Source: Clostridia bacterium (GTDB lineage Bacteria; Bacillota; Clostridia; Christensenellales; DTU072). From it: a stretch of DNA of 64,000 nucleotides. Every line of letters begins with the position of its first letter. Positions within the stretch are counted from its first letter, which is position 1. Shown piece after piece: positions 30,783 to 52,700 of the stretch. The notes beneath the pieces are model-generated. The model was not told where the DNA came from and made no database searches. It was given only the letters and a program-made list of their open reading frames with translations. The stretch covers positions 107,141 to 171,140 of the forward strand of contig JAFQOO010000005.1 of the NCBI GenBank assembly GCA_017403145.1, in the 5' to 3' direction. Made by a program: the position numbers and the translations under genes.

Positions 30783-31069
30783 GGCGCAAAATTCGTAATC
30801 TTCTAAAATGAATTGTGGGGCAAAACTTGAAAAAATAGTATTAAAATTTCTCAGCAAAAATGCGGGCAATCGTTCATATAAATTTATAAGCAAATTAATA
30901 AAATGGATTTAAGTTCCAGCAAAATAAAAATCAAAAAAATCATCAATTTCTCTAAAAGATTATAGCTTGAATTTTTATAAAATCAACGACTGATAATACG
31001 AATAATTTATTAAATTCAAATGTCTGAGAAAAATTTTACGAATAGATTTGAAATTTTTTTTAAATTTTT

Positions 31070-31115
31070 CGAAATCGTTAGGTTTTACCGAAATATTTGA
31101 GAAAATCACCGAAAT
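31070..31115. repeat. Three phased CGAAAT words (spacing 19 and 21 bp)
   Basis: CGAAAT occurs at 31070-31075, 31089-31094 and 31110-31115. The last two are embedded in ACCGAAAT. The set lies directly left of the 28-bp palindrome. Confidence 0.5.
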
Positions 31116-31137: not shown

Positions 31138-31165
31138 TATTCGCAAAATCGGTGTTTTGCGAATA
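31138..31165. other. Perfect 28-bp palindrome with 11-6-11 architecture; candidate Xer/dif-type recombination core site
   Basis: TATTCGCAAAA (31138-31148), TCGGTG (31149-31154), TTTTGCGAATA (31155-31165). The arms are exact reverse complements. Confidence 0.5.
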
Positions 31166-31276
31166 AATGCACACGTGTAAAGGTGATAAAAATCCTTGCT
31201 CCCTACCCAATTTAATCAAAATTTATCACCACCTTTTCTTATTTTTATAAGAACGTACGTTGAAGTAGGAACACTT

Positions 31277-31402
31277 TTACCCTACCAAACGAAAGCAAAG
31301 CCAAGACCGGCAATAGTTCCAGCTAATAGAACTAAAAAAAACAAGAGCTACTACAATAGCAATAGTATTCTTTTTCTTATTTGACACGTTTTTGTAATTC
31401 AT
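31277..31402 (-). CDS. Mini-ORF A, 41 codons (MNYKNVSNKKKNTIAIVVALVFFSSISWNYCRSWLCFRLVG); probably a frameshifted copy of a hydrophobic peptide gene
   Basis: SD AAGGAG lies 7 nt upstream of ATG 31402, and the stop is at 31277-31279. An A8 run at 31334-31341 shifts the frame relative to copy B. Confidence 0.35.
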   Translation of the reverse strand: MNYKNVSNKKKNTIAIVVALVFFSSISWNYCRSWLCFRLVG

Positions 31403-31429
31403 ATTTTTCTCCTTTTAAGGTTTTAATTG

Positions 31430-31458
31430 TTGACAAATAAAGTTATTAAATATATAAT
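31430..31458 (+). promoter_or_regulatory. Consensus sigma-A promoter of small RNA A
   Basis: TTGACA (31430-31435), exactly 17 nt, TATAAT (31453-31458). Confidence 0.75.
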
Positions 31459-31464
31459 CATTAA

Positions 31465-31560
31465 TAGTGAATTAACACTTATTTCGCTTCCTATACAGCG
31501 ATTAGTAAGCATAGTGCCTTACACCAAGCAATGGTCCAATAAACCATTGCTTTTATTTTT
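31465..31560 (+). ncRNA. Candidate small RNA A (about 96 nt, no ORF)
   Basis: The start is inferred about 7 nt after the -10 element. Internal short hairpins are CGCT/AGCG and GTAAG/CTTAC. The terminator AAGCAATGG (31526-31534) / CCATTGCTT (31544-31552) is followed by TTATTTTT. Confidence 0.6.
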
Positions 31561-31655
31561 ATATAAATCTTTAATTTTTCGTTTATCATTTTCTTATTTT
31601 TATAAGAACGTATGTTGAAGTAGGAACACTTTTACCCTACCAAACGAAAGCAAAG

Positions 31656-31760
31656 TCAAGACCCGGCAATAGTTCCAGCTAATAGAACTAAAGAAAGAAC
31701 AAGAGCCACTACCAATAGAGCAGTATTCTTTTTCTTATTTGACACGTTTTTGTAGTTCAT
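31656..31760 (-). CDS. Mini-ORF B, 34 codons (MNYKNVSNKKKNTALLVVALVLSLVLLAGTIAGS); basic N-terminus plus one TM-like segment
   Basis: SD AAGGAA lies upstream of ATG 31760, with TGA at 31656-31658. An extra G relative to copy A (GACCCGGC vs GACCGGC) cuts off the shared hydrophobic tail. Confidence 0.4.
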   Translation of the reverse strand: MNYKNVSNKKKNTALLVVALVLSLVLLAGTIAGS

Positions 31761-31786
31761 TTTTTTTCCTTTTAAGGTTTTGATTG

Positions 31787-31815
31787 TTGACAAATAAAGT
31801 TATTAAATATATAAT
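31787..31815 (+). promoter_or_regulatory. Consensus sigma-A promoter of small RNA B
   Basis: TTGACA (31787-31792), 17 nt, TATAAT (31810-31815). The spacer is identical to promoter A. Confidence 0.75.
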
Positions 31816-31821
31816 CATAAA

Positions 31822-31915
31822 TAGTGAGTTTACACTTAAAGCGCTTATTTAGCGGTGAGAAGTAATACCACACACTTCCATGCAATGGTTTAATAGCCAT
31901 TGCTTTTATTTTTAT
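31822..31915 (+). ncRNA. Candidate small RNA B (about 94 nt), a diverged paralogue of A
   Basis: It shares the 5' AATAGTGA..ACACTTA segment with A. Its hairpins are CGCT/AGCG and GAAGT/ACTTC. The terminator GCAATGG (31882-31888) / CCATTGC (31897-31903) is followed by TTTTATTTTT. Confidence 0.6.
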
Positions 31916-31975
31916 AAAGATTTTTAATCTTTCTCTTATCATTTTCTTATTTTTCCCCTTTTAAGGTTCTAATTG

Positions 31976-32005
31976 TTGACATATACATATTCAAATGATT
32001 ATAAT
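31976..32005 (+). promoter_or_regulatory. Consensus sigma-A promoter of small RNA D
   Basis: TTGACA (31976-31981), 18 nt, TATAAT (32000-32005). The upstream flank is homologous to units A and B, but the peptide ORF is missing. Confidence 0.7.
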
Positions 32006-32011
32006 AATTGA

Positions 32012-32089
32012 TGTGAGAGTCAGGTTCATCTGACCGTGATAATTAAATCCCACTCACAAGAGAGCATTTAATTGCTCTCTTTATTTTTT
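32012..32089 (+). ncRNA. Candidate small RNA D (about 78 nt)
   Basis: TGTGAG (32012-32017) pairs with CTCACA (32053-32058), enclosing the hairpin GTCAG/CTGAC. The terminator AGAGAGCA (32059-32066) / TGCTCTCT (32073-32080) is followed by TTATTTTTT. Confidence 0.55.
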
Positions 32090-32126
32090 ATTTCGATGTT
32101 TAGTAGAAATTTTCTTCATATCCCAC

Positions 32127-32267
32127 TTAAAGTCGGTTTGGTTGGTAATCGGTATCAGCTACAAGTTCGATATTCTTACCCATTACGTCTTTAACGAACA
32201 GTTTCTTCGTTACTCTATCATTTTCCTCATTTACAACCGCTTTAGTTAAAAATTTAATCTTACTCAT
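32127..32267 (-). CDS. Hypothetical 46-codon ORF (MSKIKFLTKAVVNEENDRVTKKLFVKDVMGKNIELVADTDYQPNRL); doubtful
   Basis: It is shorter than the smallest entry in the ORF track and was found by manual translation. There is no recognisable SD. Confidence 0.15.
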   Translation of the reverse strand: MSKIKFLTKAVVNEENDRVTKKLFVKDVMGKNIELVADTDYQPNRL

Positions 32268-32283
32268 AATTGCAATTTTTATC

Positions 32284-32312
32284 TTGACTTTTTGTGAATA
32301 ATTGAATATACT
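32284..32312 (+). promoter_or_regulatory. Sigma-A-type promoter of small RNA E
   Basis: TTGACT (32284-32289), 17 nt, TATACT (32307-32312). Confidence 0.65.
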
Positions 32313-32318
32313 AATAAT

Positions 32319-32385
32319 GACAAAAGTAAATATTAAATTTCTTTTCCCACAGGGCAGTAATAATAACCTGTGGGATTCTTTTTTA
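32319..32385 (+). ncRNA. Candidate small RNA E (about 67 nt)
   Basis: CCCACAGG (32346-32353) pairs with CCTGTGGG (32367-32374) and is followed by ATTCTTTTTT. It converges on the 3' end of the minus-strand ORF 32383-32565. Confidence 0.5.
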
Positions 32386-32565
32386 ATTTATTTTTCTTTT
32401 TGCAAAAGCTTTAATAGAATCTGATTGCTTCTTGCTTAAATGCCTTTTTGAAATTTCATTAACATTAGAATCTTGTAAATTAATAGGTTTACCATTTATG
32501 TTTTTATCATAAAAAGAATTATGTACACCGGATACAACTTCAAATTCCTTAAACTTCATCGGCAT
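32383..32565 (-). CDS. Hypothetical small basic protein, about 60 aa (MPMKFKEFEVVSGVHNSFYDKNINGKPINLQDSNVNEISKRHLSKKQSDSIKAFAKRKIN)
   Basis: The track ORF 32383-32640 was shortened because a TTGACT-17-TATACT plus-strand promoter occupies its first 25 codons. ATG 32565 has a weak AAAGG upstream. Confidence 0.3.
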   Translation of the reverse strand: MPMKFKEFEVVSGVHNSFYDKNINGKPINLQDSNVNEISKRHLSKKQSDSIKAFAKRKIN

Positions 32566-32616
32566 AATAAAACCTTTGCTTACTTGTTGAAATCTCTTTT
32601 TATCTTTAGTATATAC

Positions 32617-32645
32617 TTGACTTATATATGCTATTAGCATATACT
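32617..32645 (+). promoter_or_regulatory. Sigma-A-type promoter of small RNA F
   Basis: TTGACT (32617-32622), 17 nt, TATACT (32640-32645). These are the same hexamers as promoter E. Confidence 0.65.
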
Positions 32646-32651
32646 ATCAAT

Positions 32652-32717
32652 AAAGACAGTGGCCTGCCGTGAAAACGGATGTGAGCATCGGAAGTATTTT
32701 CGGCTGTCTTATTTTTT
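32652..32717 (+). ncRNA. Candidate small RNA F (about 66 nt, one closed three-way structure)
   Basis: AAGACAG (32653-32659) pairs with CTGTCTT (32704-32710) and is followed by ATTTTTT. Inside are CCGT-GAAA-ACGG (a GNRA tetraloop hairpin) and CGGAA/TTTCG. Confidence 0.5.
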
Positions 32718-32764
32718 ATGCCTTTTTATCAACTCTTTATCATAATCACTTCTTAAAGCAAATA

Positions 32765-32935
32765 AAAGATAGCCGAGGCTCTCCAGCCCTCTATGCGTTT
32801 GAAGTGAGGATTCTGGCAAGTATAGTGGTCTTGCCAACACGGGGCACAAGGGAGTGTCCCTTGAGGCATAACAGGGACCACCTCTTGGTCTTCTTAACTC
32901 CCCTTTTGTCGGTGTCGCTTGCGCGCGAGAGTATA
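32765..32935. ncRNA. GC-rich, multi-hairpin element of unknown class (candidate structured RNA; strand unresolved)
   Basis: This is a sharp GC-rich patch in AT-rich intergenic DNA. Perfect hairpins lie at 32814-32820/32830-32836 (7 bp), 32847-32853/32857-32863 (7 bp) and 32874-32880/32886-32892 (7 bp, two of them G-U on the plus strand). Possible closing helices are 32801-32810/32892-32901 and 32772-32776/32909-32913. Terminator-like hairpins flank it on both strands. Confidence 0.4.
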
Positions 32936-32971
32936 AAAAAAGACAGGCTCTTGTGTCCTGTCTTAATTTTT
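32935..32971. terminator. Bidirectional intrinsic terminator
   Basis: AAGACAGG (32940-32947) pairs with CCTGTCTT (32957-32964). An A7 run lies upstream, giving a U7 tail on the minus strand after the 91-aa ORF. AATTTTT lies downstream on the plus strand. Confidence 0.65.
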
Positions 32972-33245
32972 AATCCACTATTGGATATTCTATATAATCA
33001 ATAATTTCAATTAAAGGTTTATTATTTATTTTAAATTCTAAAAGTAAAGCATCTATTGTATTAAACGTTTTATTATAAATCTCGTTTATATAAATATCTA
33101 CACCTTTCCCATCTTTAGTTATAATTAAATAATCTTTATGATTATATTGAAAATCAATTGAATACGAGCTTTTAAAGCTATCATATAACATATTAATAAA
33201 ATCTATTGAGTCTTGAACATCAGTGTATTTTTTAATATCAATCAT
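32970..33245 (-). CDS. Hypothetical acidic 91-aa protein (immunity/antitoxin-like second gene of a decayed bicistron)
   Basis: A clean ORF with GGAG 12 nt upstream and a strong terminator directly after the stop. The start ATG is embedded in ATGA with one reading frame of the upstream decayed gene. No recognisable family. Confidence 0.5.
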   Translation of the reverse strand: MIDIKKYTDVQDSIDFINMLYDSFKSSYSIDFQYNHKDYLIITKDGKGVDIYINEIYNKTFNTIDALLLEFKINNKPLIEIIDYIEYPIVD

Positions 33246-33554
33246 TTTATCACAAATCTCCTTTTCTTTTTAGCTTTATCAAATTCACGTTGCTCTTTTT
33301 TGTTAATTTCCTTTCTGAAGAACGAATAGGACCATTATAATCATGAGTATGGTCACTATTATTATGATTATTATGAGGTCTATTATATTCTTTATTCAAG
33401 GAACCTTTATCACCGACTTTCTTTCGCTGAATCCAGTTTTACTATGATAAACATCTATATTAGTATTAGGCTCTCCATAAATAGGCATCCTCGAAACAAT
33501 TTTTTTCAAACCTTTTGCATTAATTAATAATAAATCGTGTTTATGCTTTGACAT
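33242..33554 (-). pseudogene. Frameshifted small basic protein gene upstream of the 91-aa ORF
   Basis: Strong SD AAGGAG lies 7 nt before ATG 33554. Frame 1 (MSKHKHDLLLINAKGLKKIVSRMPIYGEPNTNIDVYHSKTGFSERKSVIKVP) stops at 33396. The -1 frame stays open across that stop (..VGDKGSLNKEYNRPHNNHNNSDHTHDYNGPIRSSERKLTKK..) and continues to 33250. A third frame ends in the ATGA overlap at 33242-33245. Confidence 0.45.
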
Positions 33555-33612
33555 AATTATACTCCTTTTGTGTCATAAAATCAATATGGTAAATCATCGT
33601 TATTATCATCAA

Positions 33613-33706
33613 CCGGCAATAGTTCTAGCTAGAGAACTAAAGAAAAACAAGAGCTACTACAATAGCAATAGTATTTTTTCTTATTTGACACGTTTTTTAA
33701 TTCATA
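33613..33706 (-). pseudogene. Dead third copy of the hydrophobic-peptide mini-gene
   Basis: It is homologous to ORF A and B, but ATG AAT TAA gives a stop at codon 3 through a 1-nt deletion. There is a further 2-nt deletion, and the 3' end is truncated at 33613. Confidence 0.5.
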
Positions 33707-33734
33707 TTTTTCTCCTTTTTAAGGTTTTAATTGT

Positions 33735-33763
33735 TGACAAATAAAAATATTAGATATATAATC
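33735..33763 (+). promoter_or_regulatory. Consensus sigma-A promoter of small RNA C
   Basis: TTGACA (33735-33740), 17 nt, TATAAT (33758-33763). Confidence 0.75.
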
Positions 33764-33769
33764 ATTAAT

Positions 33770-33866
33770 AGTGAATTAACACTTATTTCGCTTCTCACAG
33801 CGATTAGTAAGCATTGTGCCTTACACCAAGCAATGGTCCAATAAACCATTGCTTTTATTTTTTATA
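33770..33866 (+). ncRNA. Candidate small RNA C (about 97 nt), a near-identical paralogue of A
   Basis: It differs from A only in a hairpin loop (TCTCAC vs TCCTATACA) and one other base. The terminator AAGCAATGG (33829-33837) / CCATTGCTT (33847-33855) is followed by TTATTTTTT. Confidence 0.6.
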
Positions 33867-33897
33867 AGCATCCCCTATTTTTTTATTGTTTAGTATT

Positions 33898-33928
33898 TTA
33901 AGCAAAAATTCATTGTATTTTGCGAATA
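33898..33928. other. Degenerate copy of the 28-bp site, abutting the recombinase gene
   Basis: TTTAGCAAAAA (33898-33908), a 9-nt spacer TTCATTGTA, then TTTTGCGAATA (33918-33928). The right arm is identical to 31155-31165. Confidence 0.35.
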
Positions 33929-33941
33929 GTCGTGTTATTAT
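33913..33941 (+). promoter_or_regulatory. Putative extended -10 promoter of the recombinase gene (leaderless mRNA)
   Basis: TTGTAT (33913-33918), 17 nt, TGtTATTAT (hexamer at 33936-33941). ATG 33948 begins 7 nt after the hexamer, with no SD. The right arm of the site lies in the spacer. Confidence 0.4.
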
Positions 33942-33947
33942 TTTAGT

Positions 33948-35018
33948 ATGGCAAACGAAAGATATTACGACCAATTTAATAGAGAAAAATATGAGAAATT
34001 TAACTCCATCGTTGAAGAACTTCCCTATTTTTGCAATGAGTACTTTACCGGTATAGATTCCACTACTTCGGTGCTTACTAAACTTAACTATGCAACCGAT
34101 TTATCCATTTTCTTTGACTTTTTGGTGCATAAAGTACACGGTTTTGTCGGTAAGCAAATTGCTGATATTACTTTAAAAGATATTGACGAATATATATCAG
34201 CTACCGAAATTGAATATTTTTTAAGATATTTATCCTTCTATACTTTCAAAGGAAAGCCCTATCGTAATGCAGAAAAGGCTAAGGCAAGAAAGTTGAGTGC
34301 TGTTAGGTCCCTATTCAAATATTTTTATAATAAGGATAAACTTAGTCAAAACGTTACTGCAAAAGTTGCAACGCCCAAGCTTCACGAGAAAGCTATTGTT
34401 CGTTTGGACGATAACGAAGTGGAAAAAATGCTTGATACTGTAGAAAGTGAGCAAAAATTTGTTTCAAAATTCCAAAATAGTTATAATATGAACACGCGCG
34501 ACCGCGATATTGCTATAGTTACGTTATTTTTAGGTACGGGAATTCGTGTTAGCGAGTTGGTTGGTATAAATCTTGATGACCTTGATATAAAGAATAACGC
34601 ATTTAAAGTTACTAGGAAAGGCGGAAACGTATCTGTTCTATATTTCTCCGAAGAAGTAAAAGATGCGCTTGAATACTACCTAGAATGGCGTGAGCAAAGA
34701 CTCCTCAAGGCCAATCGATTGGATAAAGAAAACGCACTATTTATTTCTTTGCAAAACAAGCGCATAACCGTTAGAGCTGTTGAGAATTTGGTAAAAAAGT
34801 ATACGGGCGTTGTCAATCCTTTAAAATCGGTATCTCCGCATAAACTACGTTCCACCTATGGTACCGCTCTTTACCGCCAAACCAAGGATATTTATATGGT
34901 TGCAGAAGTGCTTGGTCATCGAGACGTTAATACCACAAAGAAACACTATGCTGCAATAGACGAAGATATAAAGCGCGAAGCATCTACCAAGGTTAAGTTG
35001 CGTAAAAACGACGATTAA
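33948..35018 (+). CDS. Tyrosine site-specific recombinase, Xer family (XerS-like single recombinase)
   Basis: 356-aa ORF. Catalytic residues are in GTGIRVSEL (Arg), HKLRST (His-x-x-Arg), LGHRDVNTT (His) and KKHY (Tyr). The N-terminal core-binding domain has LPYFCNEYF...FFDFL, and a VTRKGGN motif is present. Length and motifs match my recollection of XerS. Confidence 0.85.
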   Translation: MANERYYDQFNREKYEKFNSIVEELPYFCNEYFTGIDSTTSVLTKLNYATDLSIFFDFLVHKVHGFVGKQIADITLKDIDEYISATEIEYFLRYLSFYTFKGKPYRNAEKAKARKLSAVRSLFKYFYNKDKLSQNVTAKVATPKLHEKAIVRLDDNEVEKMLDTVESEQKFVSKFQNSYNMNTRDRDIAIVTLFLGTGIRVSELVGINLDDLDIKNNAFKVTRKGGNVSVLYFSEEVKDALEYYLEWREQRLLKANRLDKENALFISLQNKRITVRAVENLVKKYTGVVNPLKSVSPHKLRSTYGTALYRQTKDIYMVAEVLGHRDVNTTKKHYAAIDEDIKREASTKVKLRKNDD

Positions 35019-35865: not shown

Positions 35866-37641
35866 ATGGATACTGTTAACACAGAACTAATTAGAGGACA
35901 CGTTGATACCATAATTTTAAACTCACTTGCCGAGCGAGACCGTTATGGTTACGAAATTTTGGATATTATTGCCGATTTGAGCGAAGGTCGTTACGAAATA
36001 AAGCAACCTACTCTTTATTCTTGCTTAAAAAGACTAGAAAAGCAAGGTTTTATCGATTCCTACTTTGGCGACGAATCCAATGGTGGCAGAAGAAGATATT
36101 ATAAGCTTACCGATAAAGGCAGAGAAACTCTTGAGCAAGACCAACGTGAATGGGAGTTTTCCAGAACGATTATCAATCGTCTTTTATCGGATAGAGAAAT
36201 AGATTTAAAGACCGTAGAAGCCCCTTTTAATCCTAACGAATTGCGTCCTTTAACTCGTAGAGTTAAAGCTCACGAGTCTGGCGAAGAGGTTGCTGCAACC
36301 GATATACCCGCTCAAAACGTCGAACCGATTATAAAGTACGTATACGTTCCACAATACATACAAGTTCCTGTAGGCAGTCCCCTACCTCAAAATGGTGTTT
36401 TGCCCGAAGGAGCTGTTCTTGCAAATCCCGACGAGATTCCGGAAGAAGTTAGAGCCGAAAATATTATACAACAACCACAAATTGTAGAAGAAAACGTCGT
36501 TCAAAACGGGGTTGCACTCAATAACGTTGGTGTAGAACAAAGCGTAATTCAAAATAACGTTAACGTTGTCGAGCAAAATGCCATTGAAAACAATATTTTG
36601 AGAAACACCAACTATTTTTCATTCCTTCAAAACGAAGATGAAATAAATATCCCCACTCCTACTGAGCAAGAAGCTTTGAACGCACTTTATTCTTTGCCTA
36701 CGGATAATAATGTTATTAACAATAACGTTATCGTTGAAGAGCAAGTTAATACGATTTCGAGCCAAAACGTTGAAGAACAAATAGTTGATGAAGCTGTTGA
36801 ACAAGTTGTTCAAACTAACGAAATCGACGAAGAAACTGCGTTAACAATCAAAGAACAACAAACAAAGGCAAGCAGATTGCTTGGTATAGGTGAATTTGCT
36901 ACCCATCGCAATTTAATAGAAGACCCTGTCGTTGCTGAAAACGAGAACGACGTGGTAAATTCCTCTCAAAATAACGTTGATTCCTACAATAATGATAATA
37001 ATGGTGATAACGTAATAAATTATCGCGAAGCGCTTTCTGCATTCTTTGGAACGACCAATGCAAACAATACTTTGGTTCAACAAGCTAGCCTAAATAACCA
37101 AGCCGAGGCAGAGCGTATAGAAAATACTACCAAGGCTCGTCATTTTGGCGACGTAAAGCAATCTTTATACGAAGATGGGTTCAAGCTAAAGGTTTATCAA
37201 AAGGCAAACACCCTAAACCACTATTATCTCAAGTTTATATATAGTAACCGCATAAATCGTGATACAGCCTTACTTACATATTTAGTTTTGGTTATCGAGC
37301 TATTGGTTATGATAATAGCTAAAAAGGTATTCGGCACCCCTATTACCTACGTTATTATTGGTGCAGTTGGCGTATTGCTACCACTTATTCCCACTCTAGT
37401 ATGGGTGTTGAATCCAACGAAACGCATACGAGCGCAATTCAATCTTACTCAATCGCTTACAAACGCGGGAATTGCATTTATTATAATATCCGCAATAACC
37501 ATTGTAGTAAGTTTATTGCTAGATGCGAATATGAAATCCGGTGTTACTTATGCTCCTATCATAATTGCTCTAAATATTCCTATTAGCGTTGTCATTTATG
37601 GTATCCTTTATAAGAGCAACAATTACCATTTGAAGAAATAA
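35866..37641 (+). CDS. PadR-family wHTH regulator fused to a long N/Q/V/E-rich linker and a C-terminal multi-TM domain
   Basis: The N-terminal 105 aa form a typical PadR domain (IRGHVDTIILNSLAERDRYGYEI...PTLYSCLKRLEKQGFI...RRYYKLTDKGRE). Residues around 170-390 are low complexity (NNV/EQ-rich). The last roughly 130 aa contain 4 hydrophobic helices. The start is 8 nt after the lexA stop. Confidence 0.8.
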   Translation: MDTVNTELIRGHVDTIILNSLAERDRYGYEILDIIADLSEGRYEIKQPTLYSCLKRLEKQGFIDSYFGDESNGGRRRYYKLTDKGRETLEQDQREWEFSRTIINRLLSDREIDLKTVEAPFNPNELRPLTRRVKAHESGEEVAATDIPAQNVEPIIKYVYVPQYIQVPVGSPLPQNGVLPEGAVLANPDEIPEEVRAENIIQQPQIVEENVVQNGVALNNVGVEQSVIQNNVNVVEQNAIENNILRNTNYFSFLQNEDEINIPTPTEQEALNALYSLPTDNNVINNNVIVEEQVNTISSQNVEEQIVDEAVEQVVQTNEIDEETALTIKEQQTKASRLLGIGEFATHRNLIEDPVVAENENDVVNSSQNNVDSYNNDNNGDNVINYREALSAFFGTTNANNTLVQQASLNNQAEAERIENTTKARHFGDVKQSLYEDGFKLKVYQKANTLNHYYLKFIYSNRINRDTALLTYLVLVIELLVMIIAKKVFGTPITYVIIGAVGVLLPLIPTLVWVLNPTKRIRAQFNLTQSLTNAGIAFIIISAITIVVSLLLDANMKSGVTYAPIIIALNIPISVVIYGILYKSNNYHLKK

Positions 37642-37651
37642 TTTAGTATTA

Positions 37652-37690
37652 TGCCCAGCTTCTTTAGCAAGTTGGGCAGTTTTAACTTTA
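37652..37690 (+). terminator. Intrinsic terminator of the lexA-padR unit
   Basis: TGCCCAGCTT (37652-37661) pairs with AAGTTGGGCA (37669-37678), 10 bp with one G-U pair. It is followed by GTTTTAACTTT. Confidence 0.7.
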
Positions 37691-37710
37691 TCCATTAAAG
37701 CTACACCTTG

Positions 37711-37737
37711 TAAAAAATCCTCGTTGTTACGAGGATT
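37711..37737 (-). terminator. Intrinsic terminator after rnhA
   Basis: On the minus strand ATCCTCGT-AACA-ACGAGGAT (8 bp) is followed by TTTTTTAC. It lies 6 nt beyond the rnhA stop. Confidence 0.7.
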
Positions 37738-37742
37738 TCAAA

Positions 37743-38192
37743 TTATATACTTGATTTTTGAATTTTGGCAATTTCATCGCGAGCAATTTCATCGCATCGA
37801 TTATTGTTTTCGTTATCGCTATGCCCCTTCACTTTTATAAAGGTTACTTGGTGTTTGCTCATCAAATCTACCAATTTTTCCCATAGGTCTACGTTTTTAA
37901 CGTCATCTTTACTCTTTGTACGCCAACCGTGCGACATCCAATACGTGAGCCAACCTTTCATAATAGCATCAACTGCGTATTGTGAATCGCTATACACTCT
38001 AACCTCGCAGGGCTCTTTTAGTGCTTCTAGTGCCTTTATGATGGCTGTTAGCTCCATTCTATTGTTGGTTGTTAGCGCTTCACCGCCGGAGATTATTTTT
38101 TCCACTCCTTTATAAATTAGTATCGAACCCCAACCACCAACGCCGGGATTACCCGAGCAAGCTCCATCTGTATAAATTTCTACTCTTTTCAT
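37743..38192 (-). CDS. rnhA: Ribonuclease HI
   Basis: 149-aa ORF with VEIYTDGACSGNPGVGGWG, NNRMELTA and GHSDNENNNRCDEIA motifs. Confidence 0.92.
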   Translation of the reverse strand: MKRVEIYTDGACSGNPGVGGWGSILIYKGVEKIISGGEALTTNNRMELTAIIKALEALKEPCEVRVYSDSQYAVDAIMKGWLTYWMSHGWRTKSKDDVKNVDLWEKLVDLMSKHQVTFIKVKGHSDNENNNRCDEIARDEIAKIQKSSI

Positions 38193-46778: not shown

Positions 46779-49700
46779 TTATTTCTTTTTACCCATCATT
46801 TGCTTTCTGATGGTACGTTTTGCAACACCGCGCGTAATCGCCTTGTAGTTGGCTATTTTTACTAGGTAACCTATTAGGAATATTAGGCCTATTCCGCCTA
46901 CTGCAGAGCCTGCTACGACGTAAGGAGTAATGTTGGGCTTATCTTCATTGGGAGATTCGTATACTATGGTATATACTCCGTTGAAGTAATTGAATGAATA
47001 GTTTTCATCGTATCCTTCGTTAAACTCGATTACGTTGACGCCTACTTTACCGCTGGTAAGCTTGGGTGTGGGTAGAACAGCTATATCTTCTACACCTTCG
47101 TTTTCAACAAAGCCTTCGTATATTAGGTTAATCTTAGGTGCAATACCAGCATAAGTTGTGATATTTGCAGGGGTTGAAACCTTTAGTACCTTTTTAGCGA
47201 TTGTAAACTCAACCGAGTTAGAACCGGAAATGGTGTATGAAGAATTGGAGGGTGTTACGATTAGTCTATAGGTACCTGCATCACGAATGGTATCAACGTT
47301 GAAGATTTTAACAGGTTCACAGTTGTCTCCGACGATTACTCCATTGAAGTAAACCTTAACGTCGTCGTTGCGGGTATAACCATTGTAAACAAGGTTTTTG
47401 TATCCGTCGAACGATACGCTAATAGTCTTGGTCTTAATTTGGATGCTTTGAGTGCCTTCTACGTCGAGATAGTCGTTGGTTTCTTCAAATGAAGCGGATA
47501 CGGTGTGTCTACCTGCCGGGGGGAATGCGGGCAATGTACCATCTTCATTTTCAAATGAATAGCGAACGTCTATAGCTTTTTCTAGACCGGGAGCCTTGAC
47601 GGAAGCGTTGATTGCTGTAAACGAGCCATAGGTTTGAGTAAAGGTTCCGGTAAAGTACAAGGTGGGAGTTACCTTATTTATAACCATTTCGGTGCTAGCG
47701 AGCAAGCGATATTTAGAGATATCTTGTTCGTCGCTTTCGTGGTAGAAATAGCAATTTATAGTATAAACACCGGCAGATTTAGGTGCGCTAGTTTGTAGTA
47801 GATAGTCTTTACCATCGTAACGTCTACCTTCATATTTTAGAATGTATTTAACGTTTTCTTGGATGGAATCCTCTTCGATAATGGGTTCAACTGTTTTAGC
47901 GGTGTTATCAAAATCGAAGGAGTAGGATTTACTTCCAAACTTAACTATAGCAAGTTCCTTGATTTCGGCGGGAATTATAACGATTCTACTATCTTCGTTG
48001 GCGGGGAGCTTATAGTTGTCGCTATGAGTTCCTTCGAGAGCGTTGATAGTCATAACAACCGTAGTTTTACCGGGGTCGGCTGAGGTTAGTACAGCCTTAT
48101 AATTGACCTTTAGAGCACCCGTAGTATTGGCATCGCGTTCAATCAAGCCGTTTATTACGTAGTTTTCTTGGGTGATTTCCGCATAAGTAGTACCATCAAC
48201 GGTCTTAACGAAGGTTGAACCTGCGCTAATAGTAACCTCTCTAGGAGTAATGTTAACGTCTTGTTCTGCAGCGATTTCGCCCATTTGAACAACCACTAAA
48301 TCACCCCTTTCGTTTTTCTTAACGATATTATAATTGGTGTAGCTTTCTTTATCGTTTATTATTACGATGGTGTGTTTGCTTGCACTCATTATAGTTTCGA
48401 CGTTGCCTTCGCCGGATAGATAGTTTTCTTTGTAATTGATGTATACCTTTATGCCGACGTTTGCGCTATCGGGAGTTTCGTTGTTAACGAATCCTTTATA
48501 TATAATGTTAGGATATGCAATATCAAATTCGTCAACTACGTTTTGTGAATAATGTTCACCGTATACCAAATCGTAATCGCCTTGACCGAACGTTAAGGTA
48601 AGGTTTACTTTATCGATAATAGCTTGGTCGGTATATTTTAGAATACCATCGGTCTTTTGAACGCCATTTTCGCCTATTTCACCGGGCAATACGTAGTTGT
48701 TTGCATATTCGTCGACCTTGAACTTATAAATTATATTTATAATCTTATTTTGACCTGCATTTGCGTTATCGTACTCAGCATAAACGGAAAGTTGGTGATT
48801 TAGGAACCTTTCGGGTATGTTTGTCTTGCTGGGGTCGATGGAAGCGGTTTTGGTACCGTCATAGGGCTTTTGAATGGTTACACTAGGACGTGTAGCATCG
48901 TTACCAACGTTAAATACGGTGTTCAAATTGAATTTATTAACGAATAGCCTATAATTTACGTTGTTACCATTTTCATCGATAGCACGATAGTTTTTATCAA
49001 CTATAAATTCACCGTTATCTAGTTTCTTTAGGAATTCTATGGTAAGAGCATAACCGCTTTCTTTATAGGGAATACCGCCTATATCGTAGGAAGAAGTGAT
49101 GGCTTCACGAGTAATGCGAACGTATTGCTTAAAGTTTTCTTCGGTAATATTTGCATCACATTTTTCAAAGTCGATTAGTAGACCATTGTAGTAATCGGGG
49201 TCATAAGATGTTATATCGTTTCCTTGAGTGTCTTTATAGGTGAAGGTCTCGCCAAAGGTAATATAGTAAGTGTTGTTATCAAATGCGTAAATATGGTTAT
49301 TGTTTAGGGTTACCTTAACGCTTCTACCGACAATAACAATTTTACCCTTATTGGTGCCTTCGTTCATCTTACATACAACGTTAGAGTTGTTATCGGTGCA
49401 CGAAGTCGATAAGTCGTAAGAGCCTGCATCGGTACCCTCTTTTATTGTGTTAGAATTGATGGGCTCCATTGCAACGATAACCGTATATTCGCCCAATACA
49501 GGTGAATATAATCTAATCTCTTGAACTAGATTTATAATGGGAGTCATATAGTCGAATTCGAAGCGTTTTGCATCGAAATAAACTTCCAACTCATCAATTC
49601 TAAACGTGTCGTTAGCACCATCATAGCCAAAGTAGTTAATATTATAGTTGCTGTTTGCTTCACTAGAATTTGCTATTTCATAGGAAACGTTGTTGTTTTC

Positions 49701-52700
49701 ATCTACTACTTTATTAACAAGATTGAAACCGGTATAACGATAATCACCTACGGTTTCACCGCTTTGGCGAAGCAATTTAACGTAGATTTCGTCCCCTTCC
49801 AATATACCCGTGGTGTTTTGAGTGTTAAGAGCTAGTATCAATGAACCATCTTCGTCGCCATAAGTCTTTTTAAACTTGACGGAGCTGGTTTTAAAGGTAA
49901 TGTCTTTGGGGTTGATAACTATTGTTGCCGTGGTGGGATATCTTTCTTGATTATCCTCGTAGATTAGGTAGTTTTTGTTGATGGGGTTGTTTGCGTCAAG
50001 AGTTACGGTGGCGGTATAGGTACCAACGTCTTTTATACTCTCTATTTGATATTCATCACTAATAATTGAGCCTTTATATAGTTTAACAATAAAAGACACT
50101 TTTTCTGCGGAAAGGTTAAGGTCGAGCATAACGCCACTCTTGTCATAGTAGCCTGCGTCTTCAATACGACCATAGTTATCACCGATTTCGGCACCGACTA
50201 CCATAGTAGTACCATCGTAGTAGTATGTATTAGCATTACTATTCTTATCGAATTTAGCGAATATGTATCTAGGCATTATAGTGAATGAATCACTAAACGC
50301 GGTGCTGTAGTTATCGTTAGCGTTAATAATATAGTAGTTTTTAGCAACTTCTACGTTCGTGGGAAGTTCGGCCGATACTTTATAGGTACCTGCATTGATA
50401 CAATCGTTTATAGAAGCACCGCTTTCATCGTAATATTTTACTACGAGATTTATTTCGTCGCTTCCTAAAGTGGTGTTGGGAGCAACAAACGTATAGGAGA
50501 TAGTTCTCTTATTAGCTTCGTAGTTATAAATACCACCATTTTGTAGGTTAAACCTGATTTCTAGAGGAGCTTTGGCAATAACGAAGTTTTGTACTTGCTT
50601 GGTATCGGTAGTGTAGTTTGCGTTACCTACTCTAGCAGAAATTTGATAATTACCTACGTTTACGGGATTACCTATAATATCAGAGTCGGTGTCCATATTT
50701 CTATAAGACAAGCTAATTACAGGGTCTTCTGCAATTATAGGAGTGCTTGCTGATATCGAGTAAGATGCGGTTTTAGCTTCTGCCGAATAAACGTGGCTTA
50801 CCGTAGATAAATCGTATTCTAATGCGATTAGATATTTTGCAATTTCGAACTTAACGGGATTTATACTATTAGAACTGATAGCATAGTTGGAGTTACCGCT
50901 TAGAGTTGCAGTTGCAGTATATACACCTGCGTTTCTAGGTTCTTCTTCCCTCTTTGTAGCATCGAATATAAAGGTAATATTTAGCTCAAGCGTATCACCT
51001 TCACAAATATACTCGGGATTCTTGAAAGCAACCTTTATGCCGTCGGGGTTGGTTAGAGCGTCATACTTATGGTTCGTACCATCATAGGTAAGGTTGCTGT
51101 AACCGCTAAATCCGATTTCAAGAGTCTTTTGGGTTATTTCAAAGTTGAATTGTCTATCTTTAATATTATCAGAAAGAACGTAGTTTGCAGGAGCGCTGGT
51201 AAAGTTTACGGTAGCGGTATATCTACCATAATCTTTGGGAGTCTTGCCACCATAATCAATAGTCATTCCAATTTCACCATCTTGAGCTTTATAACCAATA
51301 AACTCGGCGGTTACAGCTTGAGTTTTTCCGTTATAGGGCAACGTGGTTGGAGAAGTAAATCTTACGTTCAAAAGTGCCTTTGTAATAGTGAAAGTGGTTT
51401 CAATAGAGCCTTTGAAGTTCTTTTGACCGGATATTGTTACGTTTGCAGTACCTGCATTGGTATTATTGCTAATATAAACCGTATAGTTTTCGGCTTGCAT
51501 AATGGTTTCGCCGAATCTTACTACGATATTAAGTAACTTTTCGTTAGGATTATTGGGATTTATAGTACTTTGATTTATTTCGTAACCAATATATTCAATA
51601 TCTGCAATCTTATCAATCGAAACAACGCTATTCGCCTTTTCCATATCGTATTGAGTGATGGTAAGAACGTGAGAGTCATAGCCCGTTTTAATAGTATAGT
51701 TGGGGTTGCGTAGTGAGTATCTAACGGTATATGAGCCGGCATCAATTGCAGTCGTGGGGTTGTAATTGGAGTCGTAAACTTGGTCTATAACGGTTACGAT
51801 ATCATTACCACAAAGTGTTTCACCAACGTATCCTACTACGGTATGTGAGGAACCATCATACTCATAACTATCGGTGTCGTAGGTTAGCATAATAGCACGA
51901 GGAACAATGGTAACCGATTGTTGTGCGTTACTAATCGAGTAATTGGTTAAAACGATAGAATCGTCGGGATTTTCGTAGCTTTCTACGAGCGATGCGGTAG
52001 CGGTATAGGTACCAACTATAATCATATCACCGCTATAAGTAATATCGATGTTGTCGTCTATCAAGCCTTTACCTTGCGATGCGGGAGCAAGTTTTGCGTG
52101 TAAACCATTAGCATCTTTATTGTAGGTGGTGCCTTGATATACCAAATCGTATACGTCGTTGGAAGAAGAGTCAGTTCCGGTATAGAACACTACGCTAATA
52201 TCAATAGGAGTTATTCTAATATCGCTAAAAGTAGCAGTTGCGCTATTTAGCGAGTAGTTTTCGTTAGTAATAGTCGCAGTAGCAACGTAGGTACCGGCAT
52301 TCTTTAGAGGAACGTTATTCGTTGCAGTTTCGTTATGATAGTAAGAAATAACTATACCAACTTCATCACCTGCTGCAATAACTGTATTTGCATTGGTTAC
52401 CACACAAGTTACTTCTTGGTTTTCATTAGAGAATCCTTTATTGAAAGCGGTCCAAGTGAGCCCTATTTCCTTTTTATAAACGTACATATGCTCTTGGATA
52501 TATCCGTCTCTTAGTTTATAGTTCGGGTTGGAAGCGATTGTTGCTCTAACGACGTAATAGTCGTCATCCCCTTTTGAACCATCTTTAACGGTAGTTTTGG
52601 TTACCTCTGTTCCGCTGATAGCATCGTTGATAGTATTGTATACTGCATAGTTAAATACAACACTATCGCCACCAATCAAGTTAGTAGCCGTAACGCTTGG

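Follow-up and report, generated by a model that had tools for sequence, protein, structure and literature searches.

What is the role of a perfect 28-bp palindrome that is separated by an AT-rich island from the gene of a tyrosine recombinase, and how did the island come to lie between the two? The question is raised by a 64-kb stretch of DNA from an uncultured gut Clostridia bacterium (assembly GCA_017403145.1, contig JAFQOO010000005.1; the whole stretch of 64,000 nucleotides is referred to as the window), for which a first-pass annotation based on the sequence alone had proposed the insertion of an integrative mobile element that makes use of Xer recombination (IMEX) into a dif-type site. 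From a comparison with related loci (labelled L001, L002 and so on) we consider it probable that the palindrome is the dif-type site of a single XerS-like recombinase at a probable replication terminus, that the island is the remnant of a Rep-encoding element and that the recurrence of one palindrome arm in front of the recombinase gene is a separate operator. The argument relies on the following features of the window.

31034–31044, plus strand: extra isolated half-site TTTTACGAATA, 17.2 bits, 93 bp left of the core site
31138–31165, no strand: 28-bp dif-like core site TATTCGCAAAA-TCGGTG-TTTTGCGAATA, two perfect 11-bp inverted arms with a 6-bp spacer
31250–33873, no strand: island, apparently an eroded and rearranged copy of a 17-kb Rep element, with blocks mapping to L002, L124, L125 and L133
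33918–33928, plus strand: isolated half-site (right-arm sequence) in the spacer of the recombinase promoter, a probable autoregulatory operator
33948–35018, plus strand: XerS-like tyrosine recombinase of 356 amino acids (aa), assigned by its best NCBIfam model (XerS, NF003462), its catalytic set and its core synteny
37641–37743, no strand: convergence point of gene orientation, all large open reading frames (ORFs) being on the plus strand up to 37641 and on the minus strand from 37743

The palindrome, its recombinase and their position

The description of the recombinase gene as the only one in the window, encoding 356 aa with all catalytic residues, agrees with our data. No second tyrosine recombinase and no FtsK gene were found within the 64 kb, and an alignment of 25 homologs revealed R200, K224, H298, R301, H324 and Y334, i.e. 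the full R-K-H-R-H-Y set, as invariant. The suggested resemblance to XerS holds with respect to architecture, but not to family membership. XerS is the top-ranked model for 25 of the 25 homologs tested (best E-value among them 1.4e-61), and residues 15–350 of the window protein align collinearly with positions 7–357 of the 360 model positions, including the N-terminal extension, a part missing from XerC and XerD; the XerC and XerD models align from residue 39 onward only. However, the score of 192.4 bits for NF003462 lies below the curated cut-off of 267, and the XerC, XerD and archaeal XerA models (145–154 bits) likewise stay under their own cut-offs. The closest solved structures are those of XerD, XerA and XerH. 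Judged by these alignments, the protein is a Xer-group enzyme of XerS-like architecture which, by the curated test, is not XerS proper.

Two kinds of comparison support the assignment of the palindrome as the Xer/dif-type core site of the neighbouring recombinase, namely the conservation of a site upstream of the gene and, in relatives, element crossovers inside the palindrome. The former was analysed in a species-level set consisting of one locus from each of 80 species with recombinases 50–63% identical to that of the window; the set is drawn from Clostridia bins, among them Candidatus Stercoripulliclostridium, Caccovivens, Gallimonas and "Christensenella sp.". The strict core NNNNCGNAAAR-N6-YTTTNCGNNNN is present in 52 of the 80 loci, one per locus and always upstream of the recombinase gene at a distance of 37–3869 bp, and near-variants exist in several of the remaining ones; a single stray match was encountered in ~0.9 Mb of related loci. 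All close relatives possess the site with other spacers, e.g. CTCGCG, CTCGGG or CAAGGG, and the spacer indeed varies freely across the species, with 30 variants in 54 sites. The arms co-vary: position 5 is concordant in 45 sites and discordant in 13 and position 8 in 53 versus 5, as exemplified by the symmetric variation in TATGCGTAAAA...TTTTACGCATA. Identical arms that change together would be expected if one protein binds and reads both. An exact metagenome scan for both arms yielded at least 120 stretches, of which 80 were examined as loci; a recombinase homolog is encoded on 23 of these, and the site lies upstream of it in 23 of 23, between 35 and 4751 bp from the gene.

Two observations on the spacers may be added. 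Loci L005, L006, L007 and L008 encode the identical recombinase P0009, yet have the spacers CAAGGG, CTCGGG or CTCGCG; such an unusually fast spacer turnover may be linked to the integrating elements described below. In 18 of the 80 metagenome loci examined, mostly from termite-gut metagenomes, the entire 28-mer is identical including the spacer GACAAC. Only L197 among them has a recombinase homolog; the contigs of L141, L149, L158, L160, L168, L172, L177, L179, L180, L184, L190, L193, L196, L204, L213, L214 and L217 have none. The gene contexts of these loci differ, and two long contigs have divergent flanking genes.

Within the window, the exact 11-6-11 inverted repeat at 31138–31165, which had been recognized in the first-pass annotation, is a unique sequence even when up to three mismatches are allowed (expected matches: 0). 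For scoring single arms a half-site matrix was made from 58 related sites, in which genuine arms reach 17.9 bits. Values of at least 17 bits are found at four places of the window only (31034, 31138, 31155 and 33918), whereas an 11-mer arm with one mismatch, with 8 matches versus 4.3 expected, is not rare alone. The half-site at 31034–31044 is kept in the close clade (L001, L005, L008, L113, L136) and absent in distant species, and the same distribution applies to a conserved GTTTTACCGAAATATTT at 31083–31099, between this half-site and the palindrome. The 31034 half-site and a TTTACCGAAA motif had been considered as general accessory sites, a role that was rejected as both are confined to the close clade.

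Gene and site are located at a probable replication terminus as judged by proxies. The cumulative GC skew of the window has its maximum at ~30–32 kb, the AT skew changes its sign at ~36–38 kb and the gene orientations converge at the point listed above. In the 48 species-level loci with full flanks, the GC skew is higher left than right of the locus in 42 (means +0.034 and -0.086), the AT skew in 40, and the genes converge on the recombinase gene and site in 30. A 2.39-Mb scaffold with a 58% identical recombinase homolog has an arbitrary start and hence offers no origin reference.

The genomic surroundings also bear on a different interpretation, in which a mobile element or prophage uses the recombinase as its integrase and the palindrome as its attachment site, the locus having no role in chromosome dimer resolution. 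Tyrosine recombinases beside their own sites and variable islands do typify integrative elements, and the XerS, XerC and XerD cut-offs are all failed. However, in close relatives, with recombinases 88–91% identical, the order mutS-mutL-miaA-ynbB / recombinase-lexA-padR is retained (lexA and a PadR-family gene are directly downstream of the recombinase gene in the window as well), and this core synteny holds down to recombinases of only ~50% identity. Moreover, the gene stays put in loci that lack the island, have a small one or have another in its stead, it tracks together with the site the position of gene convergence and skew switch, and the integrated element of the relatives resides beyond the site, as seen from the gene, and has no recombinase. 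An integrase is, on these grounds, very unlikely. One locus, L111 (contig ena:ERZ27316754:k141_778751), deviates in that its mutS-mutL-miaA-ynbB block is inverted relative to xer-lexA and lexA and ynbB converge, as if the site or terminus had been the pivot of a rearrangement.

Elements integrated at the site in relatives

Empty and occupied states of the site were compared in two assemblies encoding an identical recombinase, which provided the empty site and the junctions on the left (attL) and right (attR) side of an integrated element.

Empty site (L001, L003): TATTCGCAAAA-CTCGCG-TTTTACGAATA
attL, on the ynbB side (L133): TATTCGCAAAA-CTCGCG-TTTTGCGAATA
attR, 242 bp before the recombinase gene (L002, L004): GCTATTAAAAA-CTCGCG-TTTTACGAATA

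An empty arrangement had been predicted before and was found in L001, L003 and L005–L007, where a ynbB-like gene is followed by one site, ~240 bp and the recombinase gene. The flank beyond attR is identical to that of the empty site. The right arm carries a marker position, with the host A kept in attR and the element G found in attL; attR has thus retained the arm of the host, and that of the element moved to attL. The crossover would thereby be placed in or at the spacer, and an attP of the form GCTATTAAAAA-spacer-TTTTGCGAATA is deduced for the element. Both junctions bear the host's own spacer, and this in two hosts with differing spacers. The left arm of attR, GCTATTAAAAA, matches at 5 of 11 positions only and scores -18.7 bits; attL presumably remains a perfect site that keeps its dif function, while the crippled attR should hinder excision.

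The extent of the element is given by L002 and L133 (contig ena:ERZ27317415:k141_116745), which overlap by 5,745 identical bases and place the junctions 17,188 bp apart. The left junction in L133 was reached via a membrane-protein homolog on the L002 contig; a look-up with the window YnbB homolog for a conspecific left junction returned window-like contigs only. The family comprises L002 plus L133, L124, L125, L127 and L136–L138. Its Rep protein scores above the Pfam cut-offs for both Viral_Rep and a superfamily-3 helicase domain (CRESS-type). The other genes code for helix-turn-helix (HTH) regulators and for a contiguous group of proteins (~214–735 aa) whose N-terminal leaders are of membrane or lipobox-like type. 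Families of integrases, resolvases or transposases do not appear in the element gene tables, with the Pfam and PHROG scans covering the larger proteins; several small ORFs carry no annotation at all. In these scans Rep and the HTH proteins alone were classified, and no PHROG structural matches were obtained. Relatives of Rep in IMG/VR are 38–40% identical and have no dif-like site. One possible identity of the element is that of a non-tailed, membrane-containing virus of gut Clostridia, another that of a plasmid-like element.

Further loci document the repeated use of the site. In another species a related element occupies the same place, with TATTCGCAAAA-CTCGGG-TTTTGCGAATA as attL. In L124, which comes from the same species or one very near to it and has flanks 94–98% identical to those of the window, the junction reads GCTATTAAAAA-TCGGTG-TTTTGCGAATA and is followed by the right flank of the window, with the Rep element on its far side. 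Because an older, window-like island is retained between this junction and the recombinase gene, L124 apparently represents a fresh element in tandem with an old remnant. In the near-conspecific L113 and in L114, whose recombinases are 99% identical to that of the window, the palindrome of the window is followed directly by the left-end sequence of the element, then by a 13-kb internal deletion and finally by HTH/zinc-ribbon genes and a GC-rich element. Two full sites are present in L086 (3939–3966 and 5805–5832, spacers GTTGCC and TATTTG), and the island of 1.84 kb enclosed by them, which harbours three small unannotated ORFs, has ynbB on one side and the recombinase gene on the other. In L064 and L018 the left arm of the site is degenerate, similar to attR.

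The proposal of an IMEX at a dif-type site was thus correct in part. Integrase-less elements that leave one perfect and one degenerate site are found in relatives, and their junctions indicate a crossover in the core, but the right-hand "site" of the window does not qualify and the window is without attR. The junction sequences further suggest that integration depends on the host Xer recombinase.

The same junctions argue against the palindrome being an operator (for LexA or a PadR-type regulator) or a transcription terminator with a coincidental likeness to dif. Perfect palindromes of this size are typical of operators, the lexA and PadR-family genes directly downstream would fit such a role and the isolated half-sites at promoters look regulatory too. 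Nevertheless, the exchange of one arm at element junctions inside the palindrome signifies recombination, and in L109, where lexA is no direct neighbour, the site still accompanies the recombinase gene. A terminator is countered by the missing T-run after the stem and by arms conserved in sequence and not merely in pairing. The LexA box of Firmicutes is CGAAC-N4-GTTCG, which the palindrome does not resemble. Altogether we regard an operator or terminator as extremely improbable and retain the palindrome as a dif-type site.

The promoter half-site and the island of the window

The island had been thought to be bounded on its right side by a degenerate copy of the palindrome. The exact recurrence of the right arm at 33918–33928, 19 nt before the ATG, is correct; the "copy" is not. 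The degenerate partner arm, reported with a 9-nt spacer, is actually TTTAAGCAAAA at 33897–33907, is separated by a 10-nt gap and with 0.9 bits appears random-like. Because the partner arm scores no better than random, the recurrence beside the recombinase gene is one half-site and not a second site. The half-site is instead part of a predicted promoter.

33913–33947, plus strand: inferred recombinase promoter, TTGTAT (33913–33918), 17-nt spacer, TATTAT (33936–33941)

The A of the ATG follows 7 nt after the -10 box and no Shine-Dalgarno sequence is present; the recombinase mRNA is therefore probably leaderless. The same promoter geometry recurs in L001, L005 and L008. An isolated half-site of at least 12 bits within ~110 bp upstream of the gene was detected in 37 of the 80 species versus 3 of 400 control segments, in both orientations and in about half of the cases opposite to that of the window. 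In 15–17 species the six bases abutting its inner end constitute the -35 box, which is exactly TTGACA ten times. Two layouts can be distinguished, TTGACA / TTTTGCGAATA / 6 nt / TAAAAT or TATAAT on the one hand and TATTCGTAAAA / TTGACA / 17 nt / TATAAT on the other. In either setting a bound recombinase monomer would occlude the promoter, and the half-site is probably an autoregulatory operator.

Alternatively, the half-site and its degenerate partner might be an attR-type scar of the insertion that made the island. Insertions of the element family do produce a perfect and a degenerate site; in many species the promoter half-site is followed, in the manner of a spacer, by exactly 6 nt, the -35 box, a geometry that could descend from a full site; and in some species the full site is only 37–60 bp away from the gene, so that an ancient insertion could have split one. 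However, half-site and surrounding promoter sequence are present at the same place in relatives bearing islands and likewise in relatives without an island (L001, L003, L005–L007), and therefore the half-site is not the scar of the present one. Apart from the random-like partner arm and a gap of 10 nt instead of 6, a real attR would bear GCTATTAAAAA plus the host spacer, and nothing similar is seen in the window. The reversed half-sites of roughly half of the other species are impossible for a scar of a left-side insertion, and L012, L058, L059 and L066 keep the promoter half-site without a full site within 6 kb. We consequently judge the scar interpretation unlikely and maintain that of an operator.

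The DNA between palindrome and half-site was correctly described as AT-rich, its GC content being 0.30 compared to ~0.39 on either side. It can be dissected into the following parts.

31166–31249, no strand: right flank of the core site, ~84 bp, sharing homology with empty-site flanks as well as with the element's left end
31234–31954, no strand: two tandem module copies of ~356 bp each (repeat families D1–D6)
31277–31402 and ~31656–31760, minus strand: module part 1, 5′ stub of a membrane-protein gene (MNYKNVSNKKKNT...)
Promoters 31430 and 31787, terminators 31526–31552 and 31882–31903, plus strand: module part 2, divergent small transcription unit
31944–32095: partial third unit
31248–31592, again 31603–31945 and again 33612–33866: module copies as compared with the element, membrane-protein stub plus small divergent unit
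32128–32250, minus strand: fragment of the element's 149-aa gene, 90–93% identical to L002 1282–1398, L124 10056–10165 and L133 4345–4454
32605–32768, plus strand: small promoter-plus-terminator unit, TTGACT-17-TATACT at 32617, 95.8% identical to L124 9605–9770
32771–32964, minus strand: GC-rich structured element, mapping to L002 6771–6978 and L124 4047–4255
32970–33554, minus strand: homologs of the element's 88-aa gene (91-aa ORF 32970–33245) and 111-aa gene (frameshifted, 33250–33554)
33575–33612, minus strand: 3′-end stub of Rep, 97% identical to L124 3990–4028, the remaining Rep and attR being missing
33612–33867, no strand: fourth copy of stub plus small unit, promoter 33734, terminator 33828–33854

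These blocks are collinear with the intact element, in the same order and orientation from its left end to the Rep 3′ stub. The first module copy (31248–31592) is 95.7% identical to L125 6407–6756, where the ORF continues to 204 aa. For the stretch 32970–33554 collinear blastn matches were obtained with L002 7267–7326 and 7579–7636, the latter 95% identical to window 33546–33603, and the translations were compared by eye. The GC-rich element of ~200 bp, located directly 3′ of the Rep gene in the intact element, has a column identity of 91% in four copies (window, L124, L002 and L113 6542–6754), a strong predicted fold as single-stranded DNA (z-score -6.3) and a hairpin GGCAAG-ACCACTATA-CTTGCC with a 9-nt loop; it is a candidate rolling-circle origin or structured RNA. 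Since all blocks map onto the intact element, the island is interpreted as its decayed, rearranged and strain-variable copy devoid of Rep and attR. Strains with 99–100% identical recombinases differ in island content and module order and share boundaries near 31249 and 33874–33889.

The AT-rich interval contains six small promoter–terminator units, all on the plus strand (31430–31560, 31787–31910, 31976–32090, 33734–33860, 32284–32400 and 32617–32720), four of them with perfect TTGACA-17/18-TATAAT promoters. They exist inside the intact element, too (L125 6450–6600; L124 9605–9770), and their products would be ~70–110 nt long. Rfam searches, run with gathering thresholds for the window and with E≤1 for the island, produced a tRNA elsewhere and chance snoRNA/miRNA matches only, and assigned neither the small units nor the GC-rich element to a known family. 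The earlier idea of a small-RNA/mini-toxin cargo did not survive the comparison with the element. The mini-ORFs are the first 41–45 codons of genes reaching 204, 239 and 223 aa in the intact element, and a TAG stop stands in a window mini-ORF where the full-length gene has TGG. Type I toxin-antitoxin modules were accordingly rejected in favour of 5′ stubs of membrane-anchored element proteins of 204–239 aa; the small units begin ~25 nt upstream of the ribosome-binding site of the ORF and run away from it without overlap.

The details of the island nonetheless leave room for another history, in which it was built by homologous recombination and tandem duplication of repeated cassettes at a terminus-proximal hot spot, Xer integration taking place in relatives only. 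Its start ~84 bp right of the palindrome is off the crossover point, the modules are arranged in tandem at a 356-bp period and in an order that differs between strains, and no attR of the element family (GCTATTAAAAA-spacer-right arm) is left in the window. On the other hand, the island is collinear with the element up to the Rep stub, L113 is an intermediate decay stage with an intact attL-type junction and L124 demonstrates the use of the same site in the same lineage. We attach very little probability to a purely cassette-based origin; this alternative is about later events and for the most part agrees with the derivation from an integrated element. With respect to the flank, 31211–31249 is 92.5% identical to the element left end (L133 14129–14091), and eight aligned flanks share an invariant CCCTA ~37 bp from the arm. 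As the right flanks of empty sites (~85 bp) can be aligned with element left ends, and every integration places such a left end beside the working site, the stretch of ~45 bp may have been contributed by an older variant of the element as its left end; alternatively, it may be a conserved accessory region.

Consistent with the comparative data and with the chemistry of tyrosine recombinases we propose the following scenario. One recombinase monomer would bind each of the identical 11-bp arms, and two sites would synapse, held by four monomers. Cleavage would occur at the arm/spacer borders, 6 bp apart, where the strands would be exchanged, converting chromosome dimers into monomers at cell division. 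The attP of the 17-kb element, with one good and one poor arm, would enter the same reaction and integrate at the site, leaving behind a perfect attL on the ynbB side and a crippled attR on the recombinase side. In the window, deletions and the tandem duplication of one 356-bp module would then have shaped the island, with loss of the Rep gene and attR. Recombinase bound to the promoter half-site would repress its own synthesis.

Several points weigh against this scenario. Its support is comparative throughout. The terminus call leans on gene orientation, AT skew and cross-species comparison, and the window alone is not conclusive, its right-half GC skew being weak and positive again at 46–54 kb. 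The copy number of the site and the status of canonical XerC/XerD and of a canonical dif are read from 64 kb of the genome only, and the recombinase fails the NCBI XerS cut-off (192 bits versus 267). The ~45 bp of native-type flank between palindrome and remnant require an extra assumption, i.e. an older variant or a later rearrangement. The exact attP pattern is absent from IMG/VR, and no free circular form was recovered. Finally, 57 of the 80 metagenome loci examined have the arms of the 28-mer without a recombinase gene, many of them on short contigs, so that the linkage of gene and site is not universal. Ten of these contigs extend at least 2.5 kb on both sides; their flanking genes are unrelated housekeeping genes, and in 6 of the 10 the site is placed between convergent genes. 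The 28-mer is thus not the generic repeat whose detection, according to the first-pass annotation, would have refuted its proposal.

Aside from these features, the largest gene of the window is an ORF of 2755 aa on the minus strand (46779–55046), for which no Pfam family was found at E≤1e-5.

Comparison with known Xer systems

Bacterial single-recombinase Xer systems in the literature searched are XerS/difSL, XerH/difH and XerL/dif, in addition to archaeal XerA (PMC5357621, PMC9765430). Nothing relevant was found in the open-access literature on a clostridial single-recombinase Xer system, on a Firmicutes element exploiting Xer or on the arm sequences. Taking all parts together, we are somewhat inclined to postulate a Xer/dif system not described before, based on a single recombinase and widespread among uncultured gut Clostridia (Christensenellales-like), with an XerS-related protein, a symmetric site and a probable self-repression at a leaderless promoter, which is exploited by integrase-less CRESS-Rep elements of ~17 kb and whose spacer hypervariability may reflect an arms race. 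If true, these would be the first Xer-exploiting element for an XerS-like system and the first in Firmicutes. Only few single-recombinase Xer systems are known (XerS, XerH and XerL), each of them notable, and that of Legionella was also found via an integrated element (PMC9765430). The metagenomes contain the locus in empty, occupied, tandem and decayed form and thus offer natural material on poor-arm attP sites, strand-pair exchange and the upkeep of a working dif, and the promoter half-site would add autoregulation to Xer. From a practical point of view, the 28-mer would mark the terminus in many fragmented Clostridia bins and flag an integration hot spot which, the elements being without an integrase, will escape prophage finders.

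The XerS/difSL system known from streptococci and lactococci (Le Bourgeois 2007, PMC1914069; Nolivos 2010, PMC2965235) shares with the window system a single recombinase of 356 aa, a Firmicutes host and a site that is upstream of and adjoins the gene as a module near the terminus; XerS is also the best family model with an end-to-end alignment, albeit below the cut-off (192 bits versus 267). The sites, however, are different. That of the window has 28 bp, a 6-bp spacer and symmetric arms, compared to 31 bp, an 11-bp centre and unequal imperfect arms in difSL (PMC5357621, PMC2965235), and the arm sequence is TTCGCAAAA versus TTTCCGAAAA. Unlike in XerS/difSL, the module is not intact everywhere in the window system, whose site can also be found with no recombinase gene beside it.

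XerH/difH of Helicobacter and Campylobacter and archaeal XerA/dif are likewise based on one recombinase and a site of ~28 bp with 11-6-11 geometry, the XerH gene being linked to its site. XerH and XerA are detectable structural homologs, weaker than XerS and XerD (5jjv, E=1e-9; 5hxy, E=1e-15; 1a0p, E=1e-21), and the arms differ. In their symmetry the arms of the window resemble the XerL and XerA sites.

The elements have counterparts among the IMEX of two-recombinase hosts, such as CTX-phi, VGJ-phi and TLC-phi of Vibrio or the gonococcal genetic island. Common traits are the absence of an own integrase, an attP with one good and one poor arm, one functional and one degenerate site after integration and the accumulation of insertions and remnants beside dif. 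In contrast, the XerC-first and XerD-first pathways do not apply to the one-recombinase host considered here, and the element is, with ~17 kb, a CRESS-type HUH-plus-helicase Rep and no recognisable filamentous-phage genes, of another kind. The pdif modules of Acinetobacter are also small strain-variable accessory cassettes at Xer sites, but the cassettes of the window are not individually flanked by sites, there being four strong half-sites only, and are fragments of one larger element.

The closest parallel with respect to exploitation is XerL/dif of the Legionellales with the element LME-1, where a single recombinase and a site with long uninterrupted inverted-repeat arms were also recognised through a mobile element whose site mimic integrates into the site (PMC9765430). 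Recombinase lineage, host phylum and element are all unrelated to those of the window system, and xerL is more than 400 kb apart from dif (PMC9765430), whereas the window-type gene is usually found within 0.04–4 kb of its site. In the work on XerS it was put forward that selection may have favoured two-recombinase systems for their usefulness in horizontal transfer; no element had been reported at difSL as of 2010, and single-recombinase systems were suggested to be less suited to such transfer (PMC2965235). An XerS-like system with clear, repeated and datable integrations bears directly on this idea. After LME-1 in Legionella, the earlier counter-example (PMC9765430), the elements described here would be the second one, and the first for an XerS-like enzyme.

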